Below are positions 160 through 48,864 of a stretch of DNA of 64,000 nt, in pieces. Origin of the DNA: a virus. The notes beneath the pieces were generated by a model that had not been told where the DNA came from, ran no database searches, and was given only the letters and a program-made list of their open reading frames with translations. The position numbers were made by a program, and so were the translations under genes. Location: positions 11,563 through 75,562 of IMG/VR virus record IMGVR_UViG_3300025087_000053; one strand, given 5' to 3'. How positions within the stretch are numbered: the first letter of the stretch is position 1; each line of letters begins with the position of its first letter.

Positions 160-1299
160 TCAATACTTAAAAACCCTTACACAGTCTGCCTGTACAGCGT
201 CTTCTAGGTTGTGTATAAAAGCTTCGTGAGTAAACATTTTCATTTTCCCATACAAAAGTGCCTGAAGCTCTTGCGGCATCTGGTCAAGACAAGTAATGGC
301 TAGAATCACATTCAGCGGATAAGTAGTTTGTTTATAGTCGTGAGAAATAGTTGTTCCAACTTTGGTTATATCTAACCACGCATATCTTAATATGTCTTGA
401 TGCATATTTGGTTGGTTTGTAATATCAACAATTCCATATGGAGCTTCTTTTAATTCGTTTTCTAACGGTCCCGCCCCATGTCTTGTAAGATAAGGTCGCG
501 TAACATAATAAATATCAAGCATCTCTTTAATTCTAGCTTCTTCTAACATAGCCAAAACGTTTGTCAACCCCGTCCTAGACCTCGTAACGTGGGGAAAGTC
601 TTTACCGTATTCATCTAACAAAAGACCCTGAGCCCCCTCAAAAATAAAGTGTTCGTAATTTGGTAGTTTTGTAGAAGATTGAGGCCATAAGAAAGATTCA
701 CATCGTGCAGTCATAATGGCACAGTCTTCGTAATACTGTTCCCACATTTGTTTATTGTCAACTTGCTCTAAATCTTCTATAATGTTAAGCTCCCTCATCC
801 TCCTGGGAAGCCAGAAATTAACAATCAATTCGATCTTTTTCTTCAAAAGGGATCTGTTTGAAAGATCCCTAAAAACAATAGCAAAGCCTGCCTCGCTCCT
901 GGTAACAGTTTCGTTGATACCAAGGCCACAACTCCCGTGTTTATATTTGCCTCTTAAAGCTTCAATTGTTTGGTTTAAAATCATATCAACTGGTGTGGTT
1001 ACAAGACATCGTGGATCTGCCAAAACAATTGGGTCTGGTGGCAGAGATAGAAGCTCTTGAGAAAACAAAACAGGATTTACAATAAAATGCTTGGAGAAGT
1101 AAGTAGCAGCCCCATTAAAAGTGCCTGAGCCAAAGTGATGAAAGACGTGTCGGCTGCCATCAGATTTAATTACAGTATGAGCAGCTTGAGCCCCGCCGTT
1201 GAATCTAATTACAAGGCTTTTATTATCCGACAAGCAATCAACAACGTGTCCCTTGCCTTCGTCGCCATAATTAGTTCCAATGACAGCCGACAGTCGCAT
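160..1299 (-). CDS. Adenylosuccinate synthetase-like protein (divergent PurA family)
   Basis: GDEGKG, RFNGGAQAAHT, EGAQGLLLD and TRHGAGP motifs; aspartate-binding loop altered. Confidence 0.9.
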   Translation of the reverse strand: MRLSAVIGTNYGDEGKGHVVDCLSDNKSLVIRFNGGAQAAHTVIKSDGSRHVFHHFGSGTFNGAATYFSKHFIVNPVLFSQELLSLPPDPIVLADPRCLVTTPVDMILNQTIEALRGKYKHGSCGLGINETVTRSEAGFAIVFRDLSNRSLLKKKIELIVNFWLPRRMRELNIIEDLEQVDNKQMWEQYYEDCAIMTARCESFLWPQSSTKLPNYEHFIFEGAQGLLLDEYGKDFPHVTRSRTGLTNVLAMLEEARIKEMLDIYYVTRPYLTRHGAGPLENELKEAPYGIVDITNQPNMHQDILRYAWLDITKVGTTISHDYKQTTYPLNVILAITCLDQMPQELQALLYGKMKMFTHEAFIHNLEDAVQADCVRVFKY

Positions 1300-1312
1300 T
1301 GCACCCTTCTTT

Positions 1313-2239
1313 CTATAGAGTAATCAGCCCTTGAGAGTCTGAGGATGCGGAGCTTGTTAGGCCAGAGATTGCTTTATGAACAACCATGGCCGTACTGCCA
1401 TCCCACGAATCAGCAACGTCGTCTGCTTTAGAACCTTCCACAACTTGAATTGCCGAAACAATAACTTCAGCCATCTTGGTGTGATCGGTCAAAGTCAAAG
1501 AACGCTCTCCTAGCAACGCTCTCCAGCGGTCTACAACCCAACTATCATATGAGCCACCTTCAGCAACATTCAAATGAAAAACCTCCCAATTTCGTGTGAG
1601 CATTGTCAAAAGCTGTTTCCCGGAAATGTCTTCGCCGATAGTATCCCCGAAGACTGATTGGGCATGCTCAACAAGAATCTTTGGAGTTGGTCCGTCATCG
1701 CCAACAGTAAATAAATAACCCTTTCTGTTTCTCTTTTCAACGGCATCGCACGAGGTATGCTTCGCAGCAAAATAATGCAAGAGAGAATATCCTTCGGAAT
1801 CATTTCCTCCGCCGCCGCCCTCAAGATAAAGCTTTTCAAGCTGTTCTGCGATACGAATATCTGCTTCAAATTGAGAAACTTGAAGCGGAGAATTATCGCA
1901 GTATGCATCGCCGATTGCAGCGCAAAGAACATGAGGATCGCGCACCGGCTTTCTATTATAAATCTCTTCGAACAGGGTTTTCAGTCCCTTTTTTGCCATT
2001 ATTTCCAAAATACGAGACATTGAACCCGTAACGTCTAGTCCAACGATAATTGGAGTAGAGTTGGGATTGTCTGCGGAATCCCTAGATTCTCGCAGCCCAT
2101 TCTTTATTTTCTTTGGATCTAAATCATCGTTCATTGAAGAGGACTTGTAGATGTGAGCCGCAGTCGTCGAAGCCTTGTGCAAACCACGCGAGCTAGAATA
2201 AGAAGCCCAGTCTGTTGGTGAAAATCTTCCGCTTCCCAT
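1313..2239 (-). CDS. vWA domain protein
   Basis: MIDAS-like LDVTGSM, AIGD, EGGGGGND.E, FTVGD motifs. Confidence 0.85.
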   Translation of the reverse strand: MGSGRFSPTDWASYSSSRGLHKASTTAAHIYKSSSMNDDLDPKKIKNGLRESRDSADNPNSTPIIVGLDVTGSMSRILEIMAKKGLKTLFEEIYNRKPVRDPHVLCAAIGDAYCDNSPLQVSQFEADIRIAEQLEKLYLEGGGGGNDSEGYSLLHYFAAKHTSCDAVEKRNRKGYLFTVGDDGPTPKILVEHAQSVFGDTIGEDISGKQLLTMLTRNWEVFHLNVAEGGSYDSWVVDRWRALLGERSLTLTDHTKMAEVIVSAIQVVEGSKADDVADSWDGSTAMVVHKAISGLTSSASSDSQGLITL

Positions 2240-2241
2240 GA

Positions 2242-3252
2242 TTATTCTCCCTGTTTGTAAGCTTCATCGACGTGAAGCTCCATTTTGACAAATTTGCGTT
2301 TTCCAAATGTTTTTTGCAACGCCTCATGCCACAACTTGTAAGCACGCTGAGCCGTGTCGTCCACCGGAATCTGCACCAGATCGACCATGGGGCTTGACGA
2401 TAAAGAACGTCCTGTAATATCTCCCAACAACTCTCGAACAGTAGCCCTAATTATCTCAAGATCTACTAGAGGTGTAGCAATTTTGTTACATTTCACCTCC
2501 CATGGCAGATACTTGTATGTTCTAATTGGCAACGTAGAAATCTTTTCATCTATTGGAACAGCAAACCACCAACTTCCCAACAAAGACACGCTGTGATCAG
2601 AAGGAGAAATAAAAACGGAATCAAGAGAAATATCTCCATGAACTATCTTAGCCCACTCCAAATAACACGCTATGTTGTGCAATCCACTCCCAATCCATGC
2701 TACATGAACTGGTTCAATCTTTCCCTTGTAATAGCTAAAAACTTCTCGCAACGGAACAAGGTTTTTTGACTTTGGAATCGTTAAAAGAAGTTTATCATCT
2801 TCAAGTTCAAATACTTTTATTGACTCTGGAAGGGTTTTCGACATCTCTTTCTTCATTTTATCATCTGCATAATGAAGATTTTTTATAGTTCTCTCTGCTC
2901 TTTTTGAAAATTGTTCGAACTTCTTATCAATTAAATATGAAATGTGGGTATTCGCAATATAAACGTACCCCAATTCGAAGCTTCTGCTAACTAGGTATTT
3001 GAACCTAATACTCCCACCACCCTTCTTTTTCAAATCAAGAAAACTAGAACCTCTCCATTTCCCAGTTTCTAGAAGCCTTACTGCTTCTTTATAAAGCTCC
3101 GTAATATGTGACATTACCTTGGCATCACCAGTTGTTTTATCAGGATGCCAATAAAGAGCCAATTCGTGAAATTTCTTTTTTGCTTCTGCAAGATCACCTG
3201 GAAACAAAGACTCTGGAACAGTGAACTCAAGAATTTGTTTTTCTGTTTCCAT
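2242..3252 (-). CDS. J-domain fused to a protein kinase-like domain
   Basis: N-terminal AKKKFHELALYWHPDK (HPD motif); C-terminal IVHGDISLDSVFI catalytic-loop-like motif; no DFG. Confidence 0.75.
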   Translation of the reverse strand: METEKQILEFTVPESLFPGDLAEAKKKFHELALYWHPDKTTGDAKVMSHITELYKEAVRLLETGKWRGSSFLDLKKKGGGSIRFKYLVSRSFELGYVYIANTHISYLIDKKFEQFSKRAERTIKNLHYADDKMKKEMSKTLPESIKVFELEDDKLLLTIPKSKNLVPLREVFSYYKGKIEPVHVAWIGSGLHNIACYLEWAKIVHGDISLDSVFISPSDHSVSLLGSWWFAVPIDEKISTLPIRTYKYLPWEVKCNKIATPLVDLEIIRATVRELLGDITGRSLSSSPMVDLVQIPVDDTAQRAYKLWHEALQKTFGKRKFVKMELHVDEAYKQGE

Positions 3253-3479
3253 TTTTAATTCTTTCTGCTCGCACTTCTTTTCCTACGCGCCCGACTGCTT
3301 CTGTAACATATAATCTACCCAAGCATCCGCCATCTTGGCAGCCAACATTACAGACCATAAGACAGGAATTTCAATATAGTCTGGAAGAAAACCCTCTGGC
3401 CACACTCCTGTCTTTTGCACGATATCATATGCCCGTATATGCTCATAATTGTGAGATCAAACCAATCATAAAGAGACAT
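3227..3479 (-). pseudogene. Small hypothetical gene with a frameshift after codon ~9
   Basis: GGAGG RBS + ATG 3479 (MSLYDWFDL), then another frame continues NYEHIRAYDIVQKTGVWPEGFLP...TNS-stop; span 253 nt = 3n+1. Could be a sequencing error. Confidence 0.5.
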
Positions 3480-3497
3480 TTTATCCTCCGTTTCCTA

Positions 3498-3525
3498 CGC
3501 GCCCGGAGAGGCTTGAACTCCCGAC
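3498..3525 (-). pseudogene. 3' half of a tRNA-Arg-like gene (T arm + acceptor strand)
   Basis: GTC GGGAG TTCAAGC CTCTC CGGGCGC G; its acceptor strand is complementary to the 5' fragment at 5054-5070. Confidence 0.7.
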
Positions 3526-3572
3526 TTGTATTTTTTATACAAAAGCGAGTTCGACTCCACTATTTATAATAA

Positions 3573-3648
3573 CGCCCTGGGCAGGGCTCGAACCTGCATT
3601 ATTCCAATTACGGTACACACGGGTAGAAGCCGTGGCCGTTACCAGGGC
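3573..3648 (-). tRNA. D-armless tRNA-like RNA, anticodon UCU (Arg), long variable region
   Basis: GCCCTGG/CCAGGGC acceptor, CACGG-CTTCTAC-CCGTG anticodon arm, GCAGG-TTCGAGC-CCTGC T arm; only 7 nt where the D arm should be. Confidence 0.75.
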
Positions 3649-3666
3649 AATAGGAGAACACCATCC

Positions 3667-5053
3667 CGTTCGAGATTTAAACCACGAAATCATCAGCCGA
3701 CATGAGTTTAAGCTCTCTCCTCTTATTAAAAATAATGAATTTACAAAAAAGTCAACATATTTCACTTCGTGTGCTATATTTATAATGTGTCGAAACGTCT
3801 TTCTACAACTTCTGAAAAAAGCCTCCCTATAACTATCCTCAGTCAACGTATTCGACTCGTTCCAAATAACATCCAAACAACCTTTTTCGAACGTTGTGCT
3901 GGTGCATCTCGCTTCGTCTACAACTGGGGATTGGACCGTTGGAAAACTCAATACGAAGCCGAAGGAAAGCCCTCTTGGATCAGTCTTAACACCGAGCTGA
4001 ATGCCTGCAAAAACACCGAATTTCCTTGGATGGCAAAATTGCCGTGGGCTGTTGCTGCAACGGCGTTGTCCAACCTCGGCAATGCTTTCTCCAACTTCTT
4101 TCGCCGTATCAAATCTGGCCAAAAGCCCGGCTATCCCCGCTTCAAGTCGAAGAAACAAAGCAAAATGTCCTTCGCCGTTGAAGGTCGAGCCCTTCGCTTT
4201 GACGGCCGAAGAGTTAAGATTCCCAAGCTTGGTTGGGTCCGCACTCGACAAGAGATAAGATTTCCTGGTAAAATCCTGTCCGCTCACTTTACGAAACATG
4301 CCGGTCATTGGTACGTCTCGGTCCAAATTCAAGTCTCCGACTCCTGGTCCTATCCCCATCGCTGCGAAACCCAAGAAGCGGTTGGAGTGGATCTCGGGCT
4401 CCGAGACCTTGCCGTGCTTTCTACGGGAGAACGGGTCGAGGCTCCACGCATTCTGCGTGCTCATGAAACCAGACTGCGACGATTCAACAAGGAAATGTCT
4501 CGTCGCGTCATAGGAGGAAGAAATTGGCAGAAGACTAAAACGAAGCTTGGACGGCTGCATGAACGGATTTCCAACATCCGCAAAGACGTAACGCATAAGC
4601 TTACCGCTCGGCTGGTCCGAGACTTTCGTCGGATTGGAATCGAGGACTTGAACGTCAAGGGGATGATGGCAAATCATCATCTTGCCAAGTCGATTGCGGA
4701 TGCTGCCTTGTCGGAAATCAGGCGTCAGCTTATGTATAAAGCTCCGCTTGCCGGCAGTGAAATCATTGTTGCCGACCGCTGGTTCCCTTCTTCCAAGCTG
4801 TGTTCCGACTGTGGAACAAGACGAGAAGGACCGTTGCCTTTGTCCATCCGAGAATGGGTTTGTGAGGTTTGTGGGGTTGTCCACGACCGAGACATCAACG
4901 CAGCCATTAATCTTAGAACCGCCGCCCTGGCGGGGATAGCCTGCTGTCAAGAAAGCTCTGGTTCTGGCCCTACGGCCAGAACGAAACTTCCTCATGGGCA
5001 GGAATTGAGCAACTGTGTTAACTAATGGGTTCATGGTTTAAGTCTCAAATGGG
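3667..5053 (+). mobile_element. IS607-type TnpB-only element, copy 1 (E1, 1387 bp, no transposase)
   Basis: Inverted ends cgTTCGAGATTTAAACC ... GGTTTAAGTCTCAAAtgGG; same length as copy 4; removing it rejoins a tRNA D-loop (GCTCAGTT|GGAT). Confidence 0.9.
3769..5025 (+). CDS. tnpB: RNA-guided endonuclease TnpB
   Basis: HTH_OrfB-like N-terminus, RuvC GVDLG / IEDL / DRDINAA, CxxC..CxxC zinc finger; true start may be GTG 3787. Confidence 0.95.
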   Translation: MCYIYNVSKRLSTTSEKSLPITILSQRIRLVPNNIQTTFFERCAGASRFVYNWGLDRWKTQYEAEGKPSWISLNTELNACKNTEFPWMAKLPWAVAATALSNLGNAFSNFFRRIKSGQKPGYPRFKSKKQSKMSFAVEGRALRFDGRRVKIPKLGWVRTRQEIRFPGKILSAHFTKHAGHWYVSVQIQVSDSWSYPHRCETQEAVGVDLGLRDLAVLSTGERVEAPRILRAHETRLRRFNKEMSRRVIGGRNWQKTKTKLGRLHERISNIRKDVTHKLTARLVRDFRRIGIEDLNVKGMMANHHLAKSIADAALSEIRRQLMYKAPLAGSEIIVADRWFPSSKLCSDCGTRREGPLPLSIREWVCEVCGVVHDRDINAAINLRTAALAGIACCQESSGSGPTARTKLPHGQELSNCVN

Positions 5054-5070
5054 AACTGAGCTACGGGCGC
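4915..5070 (+). ncRNA. Predicted omegaRNA of E1 (scaffold + flank-derived guide)
   Basis: Block conserved in all five element copies, overlapping the tnpB 3' end and right end, as known for TnpB omegaRNAs. Confidence 0.75.
5054..5070 (-). pseudogene. 5' fragment of tRNA-Arg-like gene interrupted by E1
   Basis: GCGCCCGTAGCTCAGTT is a canonical tRNA 5' acceptor strand plus D-stem start. Confidence 0.8.
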
Positions 5071-5113
5071 TAATATTAAAAAGCATACCCTCCCGTATCG
5101 TCTTTCACTTCTG

Positions 5114-6225: not shown

Positions 6226-6254
6226 GGTGATGTCCTTTGTTAGAAGATGGAGCC

Positions 6255-6283
6255 ATCTTATCTTATTTTTGTTGTCTTGTCAA
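6255..6283 (-). promoter_or_regulatory. Sigma70-type promoter of ankyrin gene A
   Basis: TTGACA-17-TAAGAT. Confidence 0.7.
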
Positions 6284-6499
6284 GCCCTCAACATATTTAC
6301 ATCCATCGGAATACCCATCGTCGTATCCATCGTCGTATCCCGCATTCCTCGCTGAAACTTTTGCAGAGTCAATACACATTTTGCAAGGAAGAAGATAATA
6401 GCTACCCGACTCCCCGGATTCTTGGACTTCCAAAACACTAGCACAAACTCTACAATAAAACTTTCTTTCCATCTTCTTCCTCCTCCTCAAACAAAACAA
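6263..6499 (-). CDS. Small hypothetical protein (CxxC pairs, GYDDG repeats)
   Basis: ORF; probable start MERKFYC. Confidence 0.55.
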   Translation of the reverse strand: MFCLRRRKKMERKFYCRVCASVLEVQESGESGSYYLLPCKMCIDSAKVSARNAGYDDGYDDGYSDGCKYVEGLTRQQK

Positions 6500-6836
6500 A
6501 TTTAGAATGAAATATCTTGATAGTTTCTTCTGTAAAAGGAATCTTTAATCCAACCAACTTAGATTCTCCGCTAAGGGGATCTTTCTTAGTTCTTCTAAAA
6601 TAATGAGCCATAACCCTATGTCCGAAAAGATATTCTTTTTTGTCTTTTATCGCAATCCTAGACTTAAACTTGTTGTTAAATTTAGGATAAAGTCTGTAAT
6701 TTGTAAAGTGTCTTTCACCCTCATCTGTTGGTGTCGCCATTCCGATCTCACAATAGCACAAAATATCTCCCAACGAGTTTATTTTATCTTGAAATTCTTC
6801 ATGAAACAACACTCCAAATGGAAAAAAGTAAAACAT
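6450..6836 (-). CDS. Hypothetical protein
   Basis: Tightly packed ORF. Confidence 0.55.
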   Translation of the reverse strand: MFYFFPFGVLFHEEFQDKINSLGDILCYCEIGMATPTDEGERHFTNYRLYPKFNNKFKSRIAIKDKKEYLFGHRVMAHYFRRTKKDPLSGESKLVGLKIPFTEETIKIFHSKFVLFEEEEEDGKKVLL

Positions 6837-7045: not shown

Positions 7046-7201
7046 TTAAACCAGCCTATTCATCGCCCCGTTCCTATTGAGAAGCTTATCTCCAATAGCA
7101 ACAATTAAAGGATTTGGTTCCATTACTTGACCAACACCAGAACGAAAAACTTTATCCAAAGCCGCACCTTCGTTCCCTGGTCCCATTGCCCAACAAGACA
7201 T
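7046..7201 (-). CDS. Small hypothetical protein (51 aa)
   Basis: Manual translation MSCWAMGPGNEGAALDKVF...NRLV; fills the gap; ATG is 2 nt from the E2 left end. Confidence 0.45.
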   Translation of the reverse strand: MSCWAMGPGNEGAALDKVFRSGVGQVMEPNPLIVAIGDKLLNRNGAMNRLV

Positions 7202-7203
7202 AA

Positions 7204-7495
7204 TCTTTGAGACTTAACCACGACACGAACCCGTTAGTTAACATGGGGTTAAGCCTTCTCCTTCTGTTAAAAAGAACGAATTTACAAAAAAGGAGTAAAT
7301 TCCACTTCGTATGCTCTATTTATAGTATGTCGAAGTTTTATACTACGACGATAAAAAGAACCGCCGCCCTGGCGGGGATAGCCTGCTGTCAAGAAAGCTC
7401 TGGTTCTGGCCTTACGGCCAGAACGAAACTTTTTCATGGGCAGGAATCGAGCAGCCGTATTAACTAAGGAGTTCATGGTTTAAGTCTCGAAGGGG
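7204..7495 (+). mobile_element. Mini TnpB element E2 (left end + promoter + omegaRNA, tnpB deleted), 292 bp
   Basis: Homologous to both ends of E1/E4; internal deletion joins tnpB codon ~10 to AGAACCGCCGCC. Confidence 0.9.
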
Positions 7496-7500
7496 AAAAT

Positions 7501-8643: not shown

Positions 8644-8677
8644 TTTTTTCTCTCTTGTTCGCCCTGTTTTAGGAATT

Positions 8678-8951
8678 CCCCTTCGAGACTTAAACCATGA
8701 ACTCCTTAGTTAACAAGTTAACACGGACGCTCGATTCCTGCCCATGAGAACGTTTCGTGCTGGCCGTAAGACCAGAACCAGAGCTTTCTTGACAGAAGGC
8801 TATCCCCGCCAAGGCGGCGGTTCTTTCATAAGTCGTAGTACAAAACTTCGACACGCTATAATTATAGCACACGAAGTGAAACATGTTGACTTTTTTTGCA
8901 AATTCGTTGTTTTATTCAGCAGTTTATTAACTACAGTTCAAGTCTCAAACG
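8678..8951 (-). mobile_element. Mini TnpB element E3 (274 bp, inverted orientation)
   Basis: Reverse-complement copy with both ends and the same internal deletion as E2. Confidence 0.9.
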
Positions 8952-9002
8952 CCTTGGAAATCTCAAGCTCTGGTTTTTCCACTGTATTCTCCAAGGGTTT
9001 AA

Positions 9003-11028: not shown

Positions 11029-11824
11029 ATAGATATTTCTCTTTCACAACAAATTGCTTCTTTGTCTTGGGAGAAATCACCAGATAAGGTCGACTTCCCT
11101 TCGACACAGATTGAATTGTTTGATCTTTATTATCCAAAACGATAACATCTTCTGTTGTAATCTTGGTTTTATCCTGCGAAGCGTAATACTTTCTGTTCTT
11201 ATTAAAATTGTTCGGACGATAAACCCTAACTAACTGTCCCTCTTCAAACTTCGGAGGTTCAAGATAAACTCTCCACACTCTATTAGACCACTTGTTATGA
11301 CAAATGTAAAGATAGTCTGAGTAGTTTTGCGGAGGACGAATAAAATATTTATTACTCGACGCATCCCAAAGTTGTGTTTTAGAGAAAATGCTTCTAGCGT
11401 TGGGATATTGAGCGCACAAACTCCAGTTTGCAGACTTGTTGCCAGCACCCAGCGAGAAATTATAATACCCTAAACAAGCTTCCCACCGTTCCTTACATCT
11501 TTCGGTGTTTTCTTCAAACCATTTAGAAAAGCCTTTACCGCCAAAGCAATCATATACCTTTTCTCTTGAGAACAAATCGTTTGCCATTACACTAATAAAC
11601 GAAAGTTGCCCAACGGAAAGAGTTGTGATTCTCGCTTTGCTAAGCAGATCAAGATAATAGCTTTGATATTTATTTTTCCAAATCTCCCAATGAGGAGACT
11701 TGTTTCCTTTTAGGTTTTCATTTAGAGTCTTCAAATACTTAAGGTTTTGTTTTGTTACCTCATCCAAACTAGACGGATATTCCGGCTCAATTGGCATGTT
11801 CTTAAAAAGAATCGGATTAAACAT
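11003..11824 (-). CDS. Hypothetical protein
   Basis: 273-aa ORF overlapping its neighbours. Confidence 0.7.
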   Translation of the reverse strand: MFNPILFKNMPIEPEYPSSLDEVTKQNLKYLKTLNENLKGNKSPHWEIWKNKYQSYYLDLLSKARITTLSVGQLSFISVMANDLFSREKVYDCFGGKGFSKWFEENTERCKERWEACLGYYNFSLGAGNKSANWSLCAQYPNARSIFSKTQLWDASSNKYFIRPPQNYSDYLYICHNKWSNRVWRVYLEPPKFEEGQLVRVYRPNNFNKNRKYYASQDKTKITTEDVIVLDNKDQTIQSVSKGSRPYLVISPKTKKQFVVKEKYLYDTKDIGT

Positions 11825-12573: not shown

Positions 12574-14181
12574 CTATTTTTTAACGAGAACACAACTTAG
12601 CGTAATTAACATGGAGGCGGCGCTAAGAGCGTTGAGAAGCGCAAACACTTCTACTTTCGTAGGATCAAGAATCCCGGCCCCAATCATATCAGGTACAAAA
12701 CCTCTTGTCAAGAAATTATACCCTTTCCATAAACTTTTGTTTTTATTTCTTTTATTTCTCTTTAGCACCTCTGAAGAAAGAGAATCAAAGCTAACGCCAG
12801 AATTGCCACAAAGCTTTCTGAATGGAGAAGATAGGGCATTTTTAATGATTTGAGCACCATGTTTTTGTTCCTCTGTTTTAAAATCGCACATCTTTAAAGA
12901 TTCGGATTGAAGCAGCAAGGGGATGCCTCCACCAGGAAGATACCCATGTTCTAGAGAAGACTTAACCGCCTCTAAAGAGTCCTGAACTCTGTGCGTTTTT
13001 TCTATTGCTTCTGCTTCTGTATACCCTCCAACACGTATAACCGCAGCTCCAGAAGAAAGTCTAGAAATTCTTCCTTCAAGAATCTTTTGTTTTATTTCGC
13101 TCTCTTCTCGGCGAAGCTCTTCTTTTAATTCTTCTGTCTTGGCAAGTATCTTTGCTTGCTCTCCTCCTCCACCAACGAAAGTAGAAACATTTTTATAAAT
13201 CTCTACTGATTTGACTCGACCAAGATGTACCATTCTGGTTTTTTCTAAAGTCAGCATCGCACTATCATAAGGAGAAATAAACTCTGCTCCAGTGACAAGA
13301 GCCAAATCTTTAAGTATCTCTTTTCTTTCTTCACCAAAAGCGGGAGGACTTACCACCGCAATTTTCATTGTGTTGTTGATTGCGTTTAATATAACAGCCG
13401 ATAAAGCCTGACCCTCCACCTCTTCCGCGATAATTACCAAAGGCTTTCCTTCTTTTGCTGCCATGGTCAGAATACCCATTATTTGCTCAACAAAAGAAAC
13501 TCTCTGATCTGTTACCAACACCAATGCGTCGTTATATCTTACGGAATTTGTTCTATGGTCGTTTACAAGCGCCGAAGAAACATAGCCTGAGTTAAATCGA
13601 AATCCGTCGATATATTCAACAACGGTATCAAAAGACTTCGACATTTCAACCACAATTGAGCCATCTTTCCCTATGTTTGAAACAACATCCTCTATTAGAT
13701 TCCCAATAACTTCGTCGCCATTTGCAGAAATTGTCGCAATACTTTTAATTTGTTCTGTTGAGTCAACCTTGAGAGAACTCTTTTTCAATTCTTCTACAAC
13801 TTTTTCTACAGCTTTTTCCATTCCCACTTTAAGTTCGTTGGGATTGTCGCCAAGATCAAGATATTTCAAAGAAGAGAAAAAGATATTCGCGGCCAACACA
13901 ATACTTGTCGTAGTTCCATCACCTGCGTTGATGTTTGTGGAAATTGCAGCTTGCTTTAATATTTGTACTATGGCATTTATAATCGGGTCATCTGATTCAA
14001 CAAACTTCGCAACAGTTACACCGTCTTTCGTTTGGACGGGCGAACCATCTCCGCTCTTTAAAAGAACCGTTTTACCAGCAGGACCCATTGTTGACGATAC
14101 AGGAAAATAAATAAGTTCTATCGCCTTTAGAACTTTTTCTCTAAGCTCACGAGAATCCATTTCATGAAAATTCATTCTCAA
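12574..14181 (-). CDS. groEL: Chaperonin GroEL (phage-encoded)
   Basis: TMGPAG, TKDGVTVAK, AGDGTTT, ATISANGD, GILDPTKV. Confidence 0.97.
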   Translation of the reverse strand: MRMNFHEMDSRELREKVLKAIELIYFPVSSTMGPAGKTVLLKSGDGSPVQTKDGVTVAKFVESDDPIINAIVQILKQAAISTNINAGDGTTTSIVLAANIFFSSLKYLDLGDNPNELKVGMEKAVEKVVEELKKSSLKVDSTEQIKSIATISANGDEVIGNLIEDVVSNIGKDGSIVVEMSKSFDTVVEYIDGFRFNSGYVSSALVNDHRTNSVRYNDALVLVTDQRVSFVEQIMGILTMAAKEGKPLVIIAEEVEGQALSAVILNAINNTMKIAVVSPPAFGEERKEILKDLALVTGAEFISPYDSAMLTLEKTRMVHLGRVKSVEIYKNVSTFVGGGGEQAKILAKTEELKEELRREESEIKQKILEGRISRLSSGAAVIRVGGYTEAEAIEKTHRVQDSLEAVKSSLEHGYLPGGGIPLLLQSESLKMCDFKTEEQKHGAQIIKNALSSPFRKLCGNSGVSFDSLSSEVLKRNKRNKNKSLWKGYNFLTRGFVPDMIGAGILDPTKVEVFALLNALSAASMLITLSCVLVKK

Positions 14182-14918
14182 ACCTCTTTCAACAGTTGTT
14201 CAATATCTAAAGCTCCATAACAATCCTGTTTTTCTCTATTGATATGATAATGATGAATAAACCCCTTACAAGAGTTATGGATAAATGTTGCTTTATTCCC
14301 ATTCAAAGTCTGCAAAGGAAGATGAAAGAAAAGATGAAAAGCCTTCCAAAGCTCTTTTAAAGCCTCTAGTTGTATTGGATAAAATCCTAATATCTTCCCA
14401 AGTTTAACACCATTCACTCTATCCTGGGTTTCTATAATCGGTCGTGCTCCAAATCCATTCTTCTCATACCAATCTTGGTATTTTAGTTCTACAGCGTTTG
14501 TTATTTCAACTCCAACGCTTTTTGCATTATAGGGCTTTGCGTGCTGAGCAATGTCCGCAATGTCACACATTTGATATATCGTTCCATCGTTGTCAATAGA
14601 AAAATGAACACTCAATCCTCTATGTTCCAATACAGAATAGCAATCTCGCGAGGACAAACAAGCATCCCAATGGTTAACAAATAAATTAATCTCTCTGGTC
14701 CCCTTAACACTTACTACATTCTTATTCCTCATTCCTCCTGGCTCTGTGAAGTCGACAACAGGCCAGGCAATGGGGACTGAAGCTGTTCTCCGATAGATAA
14801 GAAAATTTTCCTCTTTTAAACTAGGCTTCTGGGGCACATAGGTTATGCCTTTCTCCAGATTATAGTTGGAAATATTCTCTCTCGCGAGAGCTGAGAGGTC
14901 TTCTTTGGTTTTTGTCAT
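14178..14918 (-). CDS. N-acetylmuramoyl-L-alanine amidase (Amidase_2), putative endolysin
   Basis: FVNHWD, SVHFSIDNDGTIYQ, AQHA..YN..SVGVEI, HYHI; native start MTKTK; alternative start 14939 inside E4. Confidence 0.85.
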   Translation of the reverse strand: MTKTKEDLSALARENISNYNLEKGITYVPQKPSLKEENFLIYRRTASVPIAWPVVDFTEPGGMRNKNVVSVKGTREINLFVNHWDACLSSRDCYSVLEHRGLSVHFSIDNDGTIYQMCDIADIAQHAKPYNAKSVGVEITNAVELKYQDWYEKNGFGARPIIETQDRVNGVKLGKILGFYPIQLEALKELWKAFHLFFHLPLQTLNGNKATFIHNSCKGFIHHYHINREKQDCYGALDIEQLLKEV

Positions 14919-14920
14919 CG

Positions 14921-16307
14921 CATTCGAGATTTGAACCATGAACTCCTTAGTTAACATGGGTTTAAATCTTCTCCTCCTGTTAAAAAGAATGAATTTGAAA
15001 AAAAGTCAACATATTTCACTTCGTGTGCTATAATTATAGTGTGCCGAAACATCATTCTACAACTTCCGAAAATAACCTCCCCACAACTATCCTCGGCCAA
15101 CGCATTCGGCTGGATCTTAATAACGTCCAAACATCTTTTTTTGAACGATGCGCCGGTGCTTCCCGTTTCGTCTACAACTGGGGATTGGACCGCTGGAAAG
15201 CTCAGTACGAGGCTGGTGGAAAACCGTCGTGGGTTAGTCTTAGCTCTGAACTGAATGCCTGTAAAACTACCGAATTTCCCTGGATGATCAAGCTGCCGTG
15301 GGCTGTTCCCTCTACGGCGCTGTCCAACCTCGGCAATGCTTTCTCCAACTTCTTTCGTCGTGTTAAATCTGGCCAAAAGCCCGGTTATCCCCGTTTCAAG
15401 TCGAAGAAACGGAACAAAGCAGCCTTTGCCATCGAGGGCCGAGCCCTTCGTTTTGACGGCCGAAGAGTTAAAATTCCCAAACTCGGCTGGGTCCGCACCC
15501 GACAAGAGATAAGATTCCCCGGCAAAATCTTGTCCGCTCACTTTACGAAACATGCCGGTCATTGGTACGTCTCGATTCAAGTTCAAGTCTCCGACTCCTG
15601 GTCTTATCCTCACCGCTGCGAAACCCAAGAAACGGTTGGAGTGGACCTCGGACTTCGAGACCTTGCCGTGTTTTCCACTGGAGAACGGGTCGAGGCTCCA
15701 CGCATTCTGCGTGCTCATGAAACCCGACTGCGACGACTCAACAAGGAAATGTCTCGTCGCGTCATAGGAGGAAGAAATTGGCAGAAGACTAAAACGAAGC
15801 TTAGTCGGCTGCATGAACGGATTTCCAACATCCGCAAAGACGTAACGCATAAGCTTACCGCTCGGCTGGTCCGAGACTTCCGTCGGATTGGAATCGAGGA
15901 CTTGAACGTCAAGGGAATGATGGCAAATCACCATCTTACCAAGTCGATTGCGGATGCTTCCCTGTCGGAAATTAGGCGTCAGCTCACGTATAAGGCTCCG
16001 CTTGCCGGCAGCGAAATCGTTGTTGCAGACCGCTGGTTCCCCTCTTCCAAGCTGTGTTCCGACTGCAGAACAAGACGAGAAGAGCCGTTGCCTTTGTCTG
16101 TCCGAGAATGGGTTTGCGAAGCCTGCGGGGTTGTCCACGACCGAGACATCAACGCAGCCATTAATCTTAGAACCGCCGCCCTGGCGGGGATAGCCTGCTG
16201 TCAAGAAAGCTCTGGTTCTGGCCTTACGGCCAGAACGAAACTCTCTCATGGGCAGGAATCGAGCAGCCGTGTTAACTAAGAAGTTCATAGTTTAAGTCTC
16301 GAAGGGG
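14921..16307 (+). mobile_element. IS607-type TnpB-only element, copy 4 (E4, 1387 bp)
   Basis: ~40-bp imperfect terminal inverted repeats; removal restores clpP stop-AAGGGG-10 nt-ATG of the amidase. Confidence 0.92.
15023..16279 (+). CDS. tnpB: RNA-guided endonuclease TnpB
   Basis: Close paralogue of 3769-5025; RuvC D/E/D and zinc finger intact. Confidence 0.95.
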   Translation: MCYNYSVPKHHSTTSENNLPTTILGQRIRLDLNNVQTSFFERCAGASRFVYNWGLDRWKAQYEAGGKPSWVSLSSELNACKTTEFPWMIKLPWAVPSTALSNLGNAFSNFFRRVKSGQKPGYPRFKSKKRNKAAFAIEGRALRFDGRRVKIPKLGWVRTRQEIRFPGKILSAHFTKHAGHWYVSIQVQVSDSWSYPHRCETQETVGVDLGLRDLAVFSTGERVEAPRILRAHETRLRRLNKEMSRRVIGGRNWQKTKTKLSRLHERISNIRKDVTHKLTARLVRDFRRIGIEDLNVKGMMANHHLTKSIADASLSEIRRQLTYKAPLAGSEIVVADRWFPSSKLCSDCRTRREEPLPLSVREWVCEACGVVHDRDINAAINLRTAALAGIACCQESSGSGLTARTKLSHGQESSSRVN

Positions 16308-16319
16308 ATGTCTAGCCCC

Positions 16320-26636: not shown

Positions 26637-26660
26637 TTCTTTTTACCTTTCTGCTTTCTA

Positions 26661-26746
26661 CGGAAGGTAGAGGACTCGAACCTCTGCAACCTTTCGGTTG
26701 GCCGCCGCTTTCCAAGCGGGCACGATAGCCGCTCCGTCAACCTTCC
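26661..26746 (-). tRNA. tRNA-Ser (GGA)
   Basis: GGAAGGT/ACCTTCC acceptor, TTGGAAA anticodon loop, long variable arm CAACC-GAAA-GGTTG, AGAGG-TTCGAGT-CCTCT T arm; no encoded CCA. Confidence 0.92.
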
Positions 26747-26752
26747 ACAAGC

Positions 26753-48611: not shown

Positions 48612-48801
48612 TTCGTGTGCTATATTTACAATGTGTCGAAGATTTATACTACGACTTATGAAAGAACCGCCGCCTTGGCGGGGATAGCCTGCTGTCAAGA
48701 AAGCTCTGGTTCTGGCCTTACGGCCAGAATGAAACTCTCTCATGGGCAGGAATTGAGTAGCCGTGTTAGCTAAGGAGTTCATGGTTTAAGTCTCAAAGGG
48801 G
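48612..48801 (+). mobile_element. Mini TnpB element E5 (promoter + omegaRNA + right end; left end not recognisable)
   Basis: Homology to E2/E3 from TTCGTGTGCTATATT to GTCTCAAAGGGG. Confidence 0.88.
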
Positions 48802-48864
48802 ACCTAGATTAGCACATTAAATAGGCTAATGTGAGGATTTTAGCAAGAAGAGAAGAAATAAACA

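Follow-up and report, generated by a model that had tools for sequence, protein, structure and literature searches.

The window analysed here is a stretch of 64,000 nucleotides, corresponding to positions 11,563 to 75,562 of the virus record IMGVR_UViG_3300025087_000053. It contains five related elements, including two full copies that encode TnpB (E1 and E2) and three gene-less mini copies (M1, M2, and M3). The features of the E1 locus and of the other copies are listed in Table 1.

Table 1. Features of the E1 locus and related copies (window coordinates)
Feature	Position	Strand	Basis or remark
E1, full copy	about 3665-5054	+	codes for TnpB
CAT beside left end, candidate TAM core; family consensus about GYCAT	3662..3664	+	8/9 independent sites
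E1 left end; conserved block starts TTCGAGATTTAAACC (3669)	3665..3768	+	end alignment; first base 3664, 3665 or 3669
tnpB of E1, 418 codons from GTG 3769; true start may be GTG 3787	3769..5025	+	Pfam, phrog_506, ISDra2 alignment
E1 right end, omegaRNA scaffold region; ends ...GTTTAAGTCTCAAATGGGA	4915..5054	+	self-BLAST, end alignment
E1 right flank, predicted 16-nt guide ACTGAGCTACGGGCGC	5055..5070	+	antisense to tRNA-Arg positions 1-16
E2, second full copy	14919..16308	+	88.6% DNA and 88.8% protein identity to E1; guide is the unrelated flank TGTCTAGCCCCTTAAA
M1, gene-less mini copy, left end and omegaRNA scaffold	7202..7496	+	guide is an unrelated flank
M2, gene-less mini copy	8677..8953	-	guide is an unrelated flank
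M3, mini copy without left-end tip	48612..48802	+	guide is an unrelated flank
Outer tRNA-Arg 3' fragment	3498..3527	-	27/30 identical to 3' part of intact L221 tRNA-Arg(ACG)
Inner non-canonical tRNA-Arg(UCU)-like gene	3573..3648	-	Rfam tRNA model 32.5 bits, gathering score 29, local search
15-nt direct repeat TTTCCTACGCGCCCG, exact	3279..3293 and 3491..3505		self-BLAST

The tnpB gene of E1 is apparently intact. Its product contains the HTH_OrfB_IS605 (PF12323), OrfB_IS605 (PF01385), and Cas12f1-like_TNB (PF07282) domains, all above the Pfam cut-offs, and it also matches phrog_506. The protein aligned over its full length with the ISDra2 TnpB (8exa/8bf8/8h1j, E 4e-73). The RuvC residues D208 (GVDLG), E292 (IEDLN), and D375 (HDRDINAA) of E1 correspond to D191, E278, and D361 of ISDra2, respectively. 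The 75.5-kb record, rated 38% complete by CheckV, gave no match to TnpA of the Y1 (PF01797) or the serine (PF00239) type; E1 was therefore categorized as a non-autonomous, TnpB-only member of the IS200/IS605 family. Upstream of the window, the minus strand of the record (6227-6814) has one distant TnpB/Cas12f-like match (23% identity over 186 residues).

The genes near E1 include a minus-strand module (160-3252), which encodes a PurA-like adenylosuccinate synthetase, a phrog_2971 protein, and a kinase-like protein. The PurA-like gene belongs to phrog_1211 ('2-aminooxy adenylosuccinate synthetase') and is of the PurZ kind. The kinase-like protein has a weak DnaJ (J-domain) match, and its homologues occur in phage contigs of 100-500 kb. 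An identical copy of this 336-aa protein is recorded on 14 contigs of up to 154 kb. When the 336-aa kinase-like protein and the 127-aa protein flanking the locus were used as single queries, no IMG/VR relatives were found. A profile of the kinase homologues gave 14 jumbo-phage loci, none of which has a syntenic tRNA-Arg beside the gene. Megablast against the GenBank phages gave no match. The sole distant GenBank match is MT835469.1 (human faeces), which contains vWA and PurA-like genes, and no kinase or tRNA. At the level of single genes, the closest named phages are ~190-kb ones of Vibrio and Rhizobium, together with an uncultured faecal phage, all with ~40% protein identity. Several of the jumbo phages with a kinase homologue (L012-L015, L017, and L020) carry tRNAs with a CTA anticodon near the module. 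These tRNAs are labelled 'Pyl' by ARAGORN and suggest that amber stops are recoded in these phages. The window phage has a tRNA-Ser(GGA) only (26660-26747).

Right end, predicted guide and relatives of E1

The right end of E1 (~140 nt) is common to E2 and the three gene-less mini copies. Self-BLAST showed that it is 85-92% identical to 7357-7497, 48663-48805, and 8824-8676. An Rfam search of this region matched no family. All five window copies finish in ...GTTTAAGTCTC(A/G)AA(T/G)GGGA, and the end alignment shows unrelated sequence directly past that A. The tip, ...CTC(R)(R)AA(N)GGGA, is also common to the distant relatives L021/L252, L023, L253, and L022. Since the tip is conserved across the copies and they diverge directly after it, A5054 is the final base of the E1 right end.

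The sequence AACTGAGCTACGGGCGC, at 5054-5070 of the plus strand, is the exact reverse complement of GCGCCCGTAGCTCAGTT, the start of a tRNA-Arg gene. It occurs once in the window. The initial annotation had noticed this antisense match and had read all 17 nt as guide; the match is exact and unique in the record, and the boundary was one base off. As A5054 belongs to the element, the predicted guide begins at 5055 and spans tRNA positions 1-16 (16/16), not 17. The three bases that follow (TAA, 5071-5073) lie outside the tRNA, upstream of its start. The guide is antisense to the acceptor 5' strand, U8/A9, the D-stem 5' strand, and the start of the D-loop of a minus-strand tRNA-Arg. A search of the entire record (75,562 bp) that allowed up to 4 mismatches gave no second match to the 5054-5070 sequence, which argues against self-targeting by E1.

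Of the 301 genomes sampled from one bacterial phylum, 54 (18%) contain the exact 16-mer; the reversed control pattern gave 2 matches. All 31 bacterial instances that were read are tRNA-Arg genes, with the anticodons TCT (16), TCG (7), CCT (5), CCG (1), ACG (1), and GCG (1). The 16-mer is a tRNA-Arg signature, and the earlier statement that many bacterial tRNA-Arg genes start in this way holds. Beyond the 16-mer, 24 of these instances continue TGGATAGAGC (TGGAT), five continue CGGATAGAGC, and none continues ATG. The 19-mer ending in TGG occurs in at least 117 IMG/VR contigs, mostly within tRNA-Arg genes.

The likeness of an arbitrary flank to a tRNA start might arise by chance, and the shortness of the match, and nothing else, would speak for this. 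A given 16-mer is expected only about once per 4 billion bases. In the bacterial samples read, this one is confined to tRNA-Arg genes; moreover, a complementary tRNA 3' end and a second tRNA-like gene lie nearby. Chance resemblance has a negligible probability and was rejected on these grounds.

The perfect complementarity to the tRNA-Arg 5' end could also be taken to mean that RNA is the target: the first 16 nt of tRNA-Arg transcripts would pair with the omegaRNA 3' end, and TnpB would sequester or cleave these transcripts. Some Cas12 relatives act on RNA or tRNA (PMC13594972). However, ISDra2-type TnpB is a DNA nuclease that needs a TAM in double-stranded DNA (PMC13565253), and folding of the tRNA hides these 16 nt within its acceptor and D stems. 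No sequence feature points to RNA targeting. An RNA-acting guide is therefore highly improbable.

The TnpB proteins of L021/L252, L023, and L253 share 60-67% identity with that of E1, and these loci have the same right-end tip; in L022 the tip stands alone. Among 80 bacterial TnpB loci, the tip was shared by L023 only. Closer homologues were found in other phages. Phage G001 contains a 90%-identical TnpB, and its flanks share zero DNA with the window. The 51-kb phage contig IMGVR_UViG_3300002727_000010 has at both ends inverted copies of an E1-family TnpB (L001/L251 and L004/L265), with 79-90% protein identity, and shares no other DNA with the window. The same TnpB family in phages without other shared DNA suggests that the elements move between unrelated phages. 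More distant relatives (L254-L259 and L264, ~43% TnpB identity) lie directly behind ORFs ending in ...SFS(A/S)R(I/L)YG(A/R)RGGRK, which we take to be the ending of IS607-type serine recombinases. These neighbours suggest that the E1 clade might stand between the IS605-type (ISDra2) and the IS607-type relatives.

The tRNA-Arg locus around E1

A second tRNA fragment lies 1.5 kb from the guide, on the same (minus) strand. From 3527 to 3498 it reads AAGTC GGGAG TTCAAGC CTCTC CGGGCGC G, which corresponds to the variable loop, the T-arm, the acceptor 3' strand, and the discriminator. Its acceptor strand (CGGGCGC) pairs 7/7 with GCGCCCG at 5070-5064. The intact phage tRNA-Arg(ACG) in L221 carries the same 16-mer at its 5' end (16/16). 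The tRNA-Arg genes of L238 and L208 gave the same local alignment score against the 3' fragment as L221 (24). The gap between the two tRNA pieces consists of E1 and ~135 nt containing the tRNA-Arg(UCU)-like gene. Judged from these sequences, the two fragments are most simply the ends of a single tRNA-Arg gene. Because both tRNA ends flank E1 on the same strand, E1 would be located in the D-loop of a degenerate phage tRNA-Arg, on the opposite strand.

Only the first ~20 nt and the last 30 nt of the outer tRNA remain tRNA-like. The tRNA likeness left of E1 ends 4-5 nt past the junction. When E1 was removed at 25 trial junctions, ARAGORN called 0 tRNA genes, and folding of the E1-less region gave no informative tRNA-like structure. 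The failed restoration and the lost likeness on the left side suggest that the gene was either broken before the arrival of E1 or rearranged afterwards.

The inner tRNA-Arg(UCU)-like gene has a good acceptor, T-arm, and anticodon arm, with CUUCUAC as the anticodon loop (Arg, UCU). There is no D-arm in the usual position, and the variable region contains a 17-nt insert. The D-stem 5' strand and the D-loop (CCGT AATTGGAATAA) are found after the anticodon arm, not before it. ARAGORN made no call for 3573-3648. The breakpoint after this D-loop coincides with the end of the tRNA likeness of the outer fragment. The 15-nt direct repeat consists of the tRNA 3' acceptor strand and 8 nt downstream, including TAGGAAA on the minus strand. 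The two repeats bracket a 197-bp segment with a 43-codon ORF, which has its own GGAGG ribosome-binding site; the segment looks like a small insertion downstream of a tRNA gene. The locus is a rearranged tRNA-Arg region.

The broken ends might have another origin, in which recombination with another genome introduced E1 along with ~20 nt of an intact donor tRNA-Arg, and 3498-3527 is a separate resident remnant. Such an event would fit both the stop of the tRNA likeness, 4-5 nt to the left of the junction, and the failure of E1 removal to give a tRNA. The 90%-identical TnpB of phage G001, with no other shared DNA, also indicates that the elements move between unrelated phages. Moreover, the GCGCCCG/CGGGCGC acceptor is common to many tRNA-Arg genes, and two fragments could match without one origin. 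However, the origin from one gene is more economical, considering the same strand, the right order, and the 7/7 acceptor complementarity. Both fragments also match one tRNA-Arg type (L221, L238, and L208), and no donor was found. A copied-in E1 is considered unlikely; the order of the two fragments on one strand and their matching ends speak for the insertion of E1 into a resident tRNA-Arg gene, as far as can be judged from the sequence.

Left end, insertion sites and candidate TAM

The left end of E1 contains a hairpin and an inverted repeat of the right-end tip, and a promoter-like site for tnpB is located at 3752-3780. The tips of the left end (3669-3690) and of the right end (5030-5054) form a ~20-bp inverted repeat (TTCGAGATTTAAACCA / TGGTTTAAGTCTCAAA), which reaches the extreme tip in L252 (TCCCATTC). 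The IS200/IS605 elements have subterminal hairpins, no terminal inverted repeats, and a fixed TAM of 4-5 nt on the 5' side of the left end. The terminal inverted repeat of the E1 family is not typical of this group. No consistent target-site duplication was found across the window copies.

The conserved left-end block opens with TTYGAGA (3669 in E1), and four variable bases precede it in the six phage-clade copies. Nine independent sites were compared. In eight of them, CAT stands at a constant position next to the left end, where the ninth (M2) has CAA. The site motifs are ACCAT in E1; GTCAT in E2 (CAT at 14916-14918), L001, and L004 (reverse complement); GACAT in M1 (CAT at 7199-7201); TCCAA in M2 (CAA at 8954-8956); CCCAT in L252; and GCCAT in L023 and L253. 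Three models were considered for the start of the left end. The favoured model (R3) has a 5-nt TAM of about GYCAT directly beside the left end, as is the family norm. A left end that starts from T3664 (R2), with CA at the end of the flank in each of the six phage-clade copies, or from 3669 (R1) is also possible. By the choice of the left-end start, the phage site beside the protospacer reads ACCAT, CACCA, or CATCCCG.

Two other routes to the TAM were rejected. In the alignment to ISDra2 TnpB, five residues of ISDra2 were read as replaced in E1 (Y52W, S56N, K76W, F77A, and Q80A), and these are presumably the TAM-reading residues of ISDra2. TTGAT is therefore not expected, and homology to ISDra2 yields no TAM for E1. 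The comparison with the 80 bacterial TnpB loci was also dropped, as L023 alone shares the tip and L254-L259 (43%) are all at one site and, like L264, of the IS607 type.

The complement of CAT opens a long outward ORF in E2, L001, L023, and L253, and also in M1 (51 codons) and M2 (as TTG). At these six sites it is likely the start codon of a divergent neighbour gene, which would place the elements exactly at gene starts. The bottom strand of the E2 left end (14919-14960, minus) reads TAAGGAG-TTC-ATG GTT CAA ATC TCG AAT GCG, and this frame runs in-frame into the ATG of an amidase-domain gene (14178-14918). The E2 left end looks as if it supplies a replacement ribosome-binding site and a 7-residue extension. 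The same frame stops at a TAA 12 nt before the flank ATG in E1 and L004, and in L001 its stop overlaps the ATG (TAATG). A left-end mini-ORF was rejected as a general feature: the upstream GGAGG spacing of 15 nt is too long, and the frame is open into the neighbour only in E2. Two linked possibilities are that the TAM core CAT, being complementary to a start codon, leads the elements to land at gene starts, and that the left end of some copies supplies a replacement ribosome-binding site, as in the AAGGAG-TTC-ATG of E2 into the amidase gene. Both the CAT and the outward ribosome-binding site of E2 are small leads to the question of how elements of this type persist in densely packed phage genomes.

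These boundaries bear on the question of host cutting. It had been proposed that the E1 RNP could recognise host chromosomal tRNA genes or tRNA genes of other phages, and that one TAM base (CATCC at the phage site, TATCC in a canonical tRNA) may decide whether the host is cut. This one-base argument assumes a right end at 5053 and a left end at 3667, and it is not supported, as A5054 belongs to the element. With A5054 within E1, a canonical tRNA-Arg shows ATCCA by the protospacer (...TATCCA), so a shift of the right end by one base changes the conclusion. A permissive TAM in canonical tRNA-Arg genes finds no support in the CAT of the family sites, which the canonical genes lack; they are compatible with R2 only.

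Cutting of the host chromosomal tRNA-Arg during infection, as a by-product or a weapon, would draw on the 16/16 protospacer in 54 of the 301 genomes, on the 24 of 31 instances that continue TGGAT and thereby put ...ATCCA beside the protospacer, and, under R2, on the CA that ends the six phage-clade flanks and the canonical site alike. However, CAT stands directly beside the left end at eight of nine sites, and no bacterial instance continues ATG. The 16-mer is found in only 18% of the sampled genomes, and the insertion site fully explains the tRNA-like guide. Host cutting is improbable, considerably more so than a copied-in E1; the host-aimed reading is not supported, and it fits the least supported TAM model only. 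The part of the proposal that concerned other phages is plausible. An R3-type target (GCGCCCGTAGCTCAGTATGG) was found in one IMG/VR contig only, the 161-kb phage contig of L268, whose intact tRNA-Arg(UCU) has TCCAT beside a 16/16 protospacer.

Expected targets and comparison with known systems

E1 is probably an ISDra2-like TnpB-only element in the D-loop of a phage tRNA-Arg, with its own flank as guide, set against the E1-free locus. The TnpB-omegaRNA RNP of this family cuts the TAM plus flank, in the element-free allele or the donor joint, which favours retention or homing of the element (PMC13565253). In E1, the omegaRNA would begin in the 3' part of tnpB, cross the right end and run on into the flank, and the adjoining sequence, here the antisense of tRNA positions 1-16, would serve as the guide. 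The target of the RNP would be the E1-free locus, that is, the TAM followed by ACTGAGCTACGGGCGC. The practical targets might be a co-infecting relative's tRNA-Arg gene, or the joint that excision leaves in the donor, and cutting there would favour the retention or homing of E1. By analogy with known TnpB systems, cutting of the E1-free phage tRNA-Arg allele is the expected function, to be assumed by default for an active RNP. The guides of the four remaining window copies are four unrelated flanks; the tRNA-like guide of E1 therefore needs only its insertion place as explanation.

The E1-free allele was searched for in several ways. Neither the exact right-flank pattern nor the E1-less junction pattern with a 0-8 nt gap gave a match in the JGI metagenomes. 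The IMG/VR and GenBank phage searches gave no phage similar enough to supply this allele.

A wider role might be considered by comparison with SegB, a GIY-YIG homing endonuclease that cuts in the tRNA region of phages T4/T6, so that in mixed infections its tRNA region is preferentially inherited (PMC2330249, as summarized in PMC13565253). SegB also promotes rearrangement and segmental amplification of the phage tRNA region (PMC13096335). Like SegB, E1 would be a phage-borne selfish nuclease that targets phage tRNA genes. By this analogy, E1 might be an RNA-guided counterpart of SegB, which cuts and homes into the tRNA-Arg genes of unrelated phages and scrambles its own locus; this is a tentative idea, rather doubtful than likely. 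Repeated cutting and repair at its own tRNA cluster would yield a scrambled locus, including a rewired tRNA-Arg(UCU). As the guide matches the best conserved part of tRNA-Arg, possible prey could be tRNA-Arg genes with an ATGG-type D-loop, such as that of the 161-kb contig behind L268. The recognition is different: SegB uses protein-DNA recognition and is not transposon-borne, whereas E1 is RNA-guided, with a target fixed by its flank. The likeness is functional and not one of family membership, as the E1 nuclease is a RuvC-type TnpB with no GIY-YIG domain.

A transposon-borne guide can mirror a universally conserved gene without any targeting 'intent', which matters when the TnpB guides of phages are read as weapons. 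If active, the RNP of E1 would naturally prey on competing phages with an unbroken tRNA-Arg allele, in an RNA-guided version of SegB-type homing. Several copies are needed to set the element boundaries before arguments on the TAM are made. The corrected boundaries and the CAT motif might be the most useful by-products of this analysis.

In comparison with ISDra2 of the IS200/IS605 family, the TnpB of E1 aligns over its full length and retains the zinc ribbon and the RuvC D/E/D residues. The scaffold of the omegaRNA likewise extends over the 3' end of tnpB and the right end, with the directly following flank as guide. There is also no target-site duplication, as in the ISDra2 family. Unlike ISDra2, the record of E1 contains no TnpA, the TAM-reading residues are replaced, and the site motif contains CAT. 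The ends of E1 form a ~20-bp inverted repeat, and the element lives in a large phage. The closest kinds are the TnpB-only IS1341 group and the PATE-like non-autonomous derivatives; the gene-less mini copies here keep the scaffold. E1 is a TnpB/omegaRNA element that would work as its family does.
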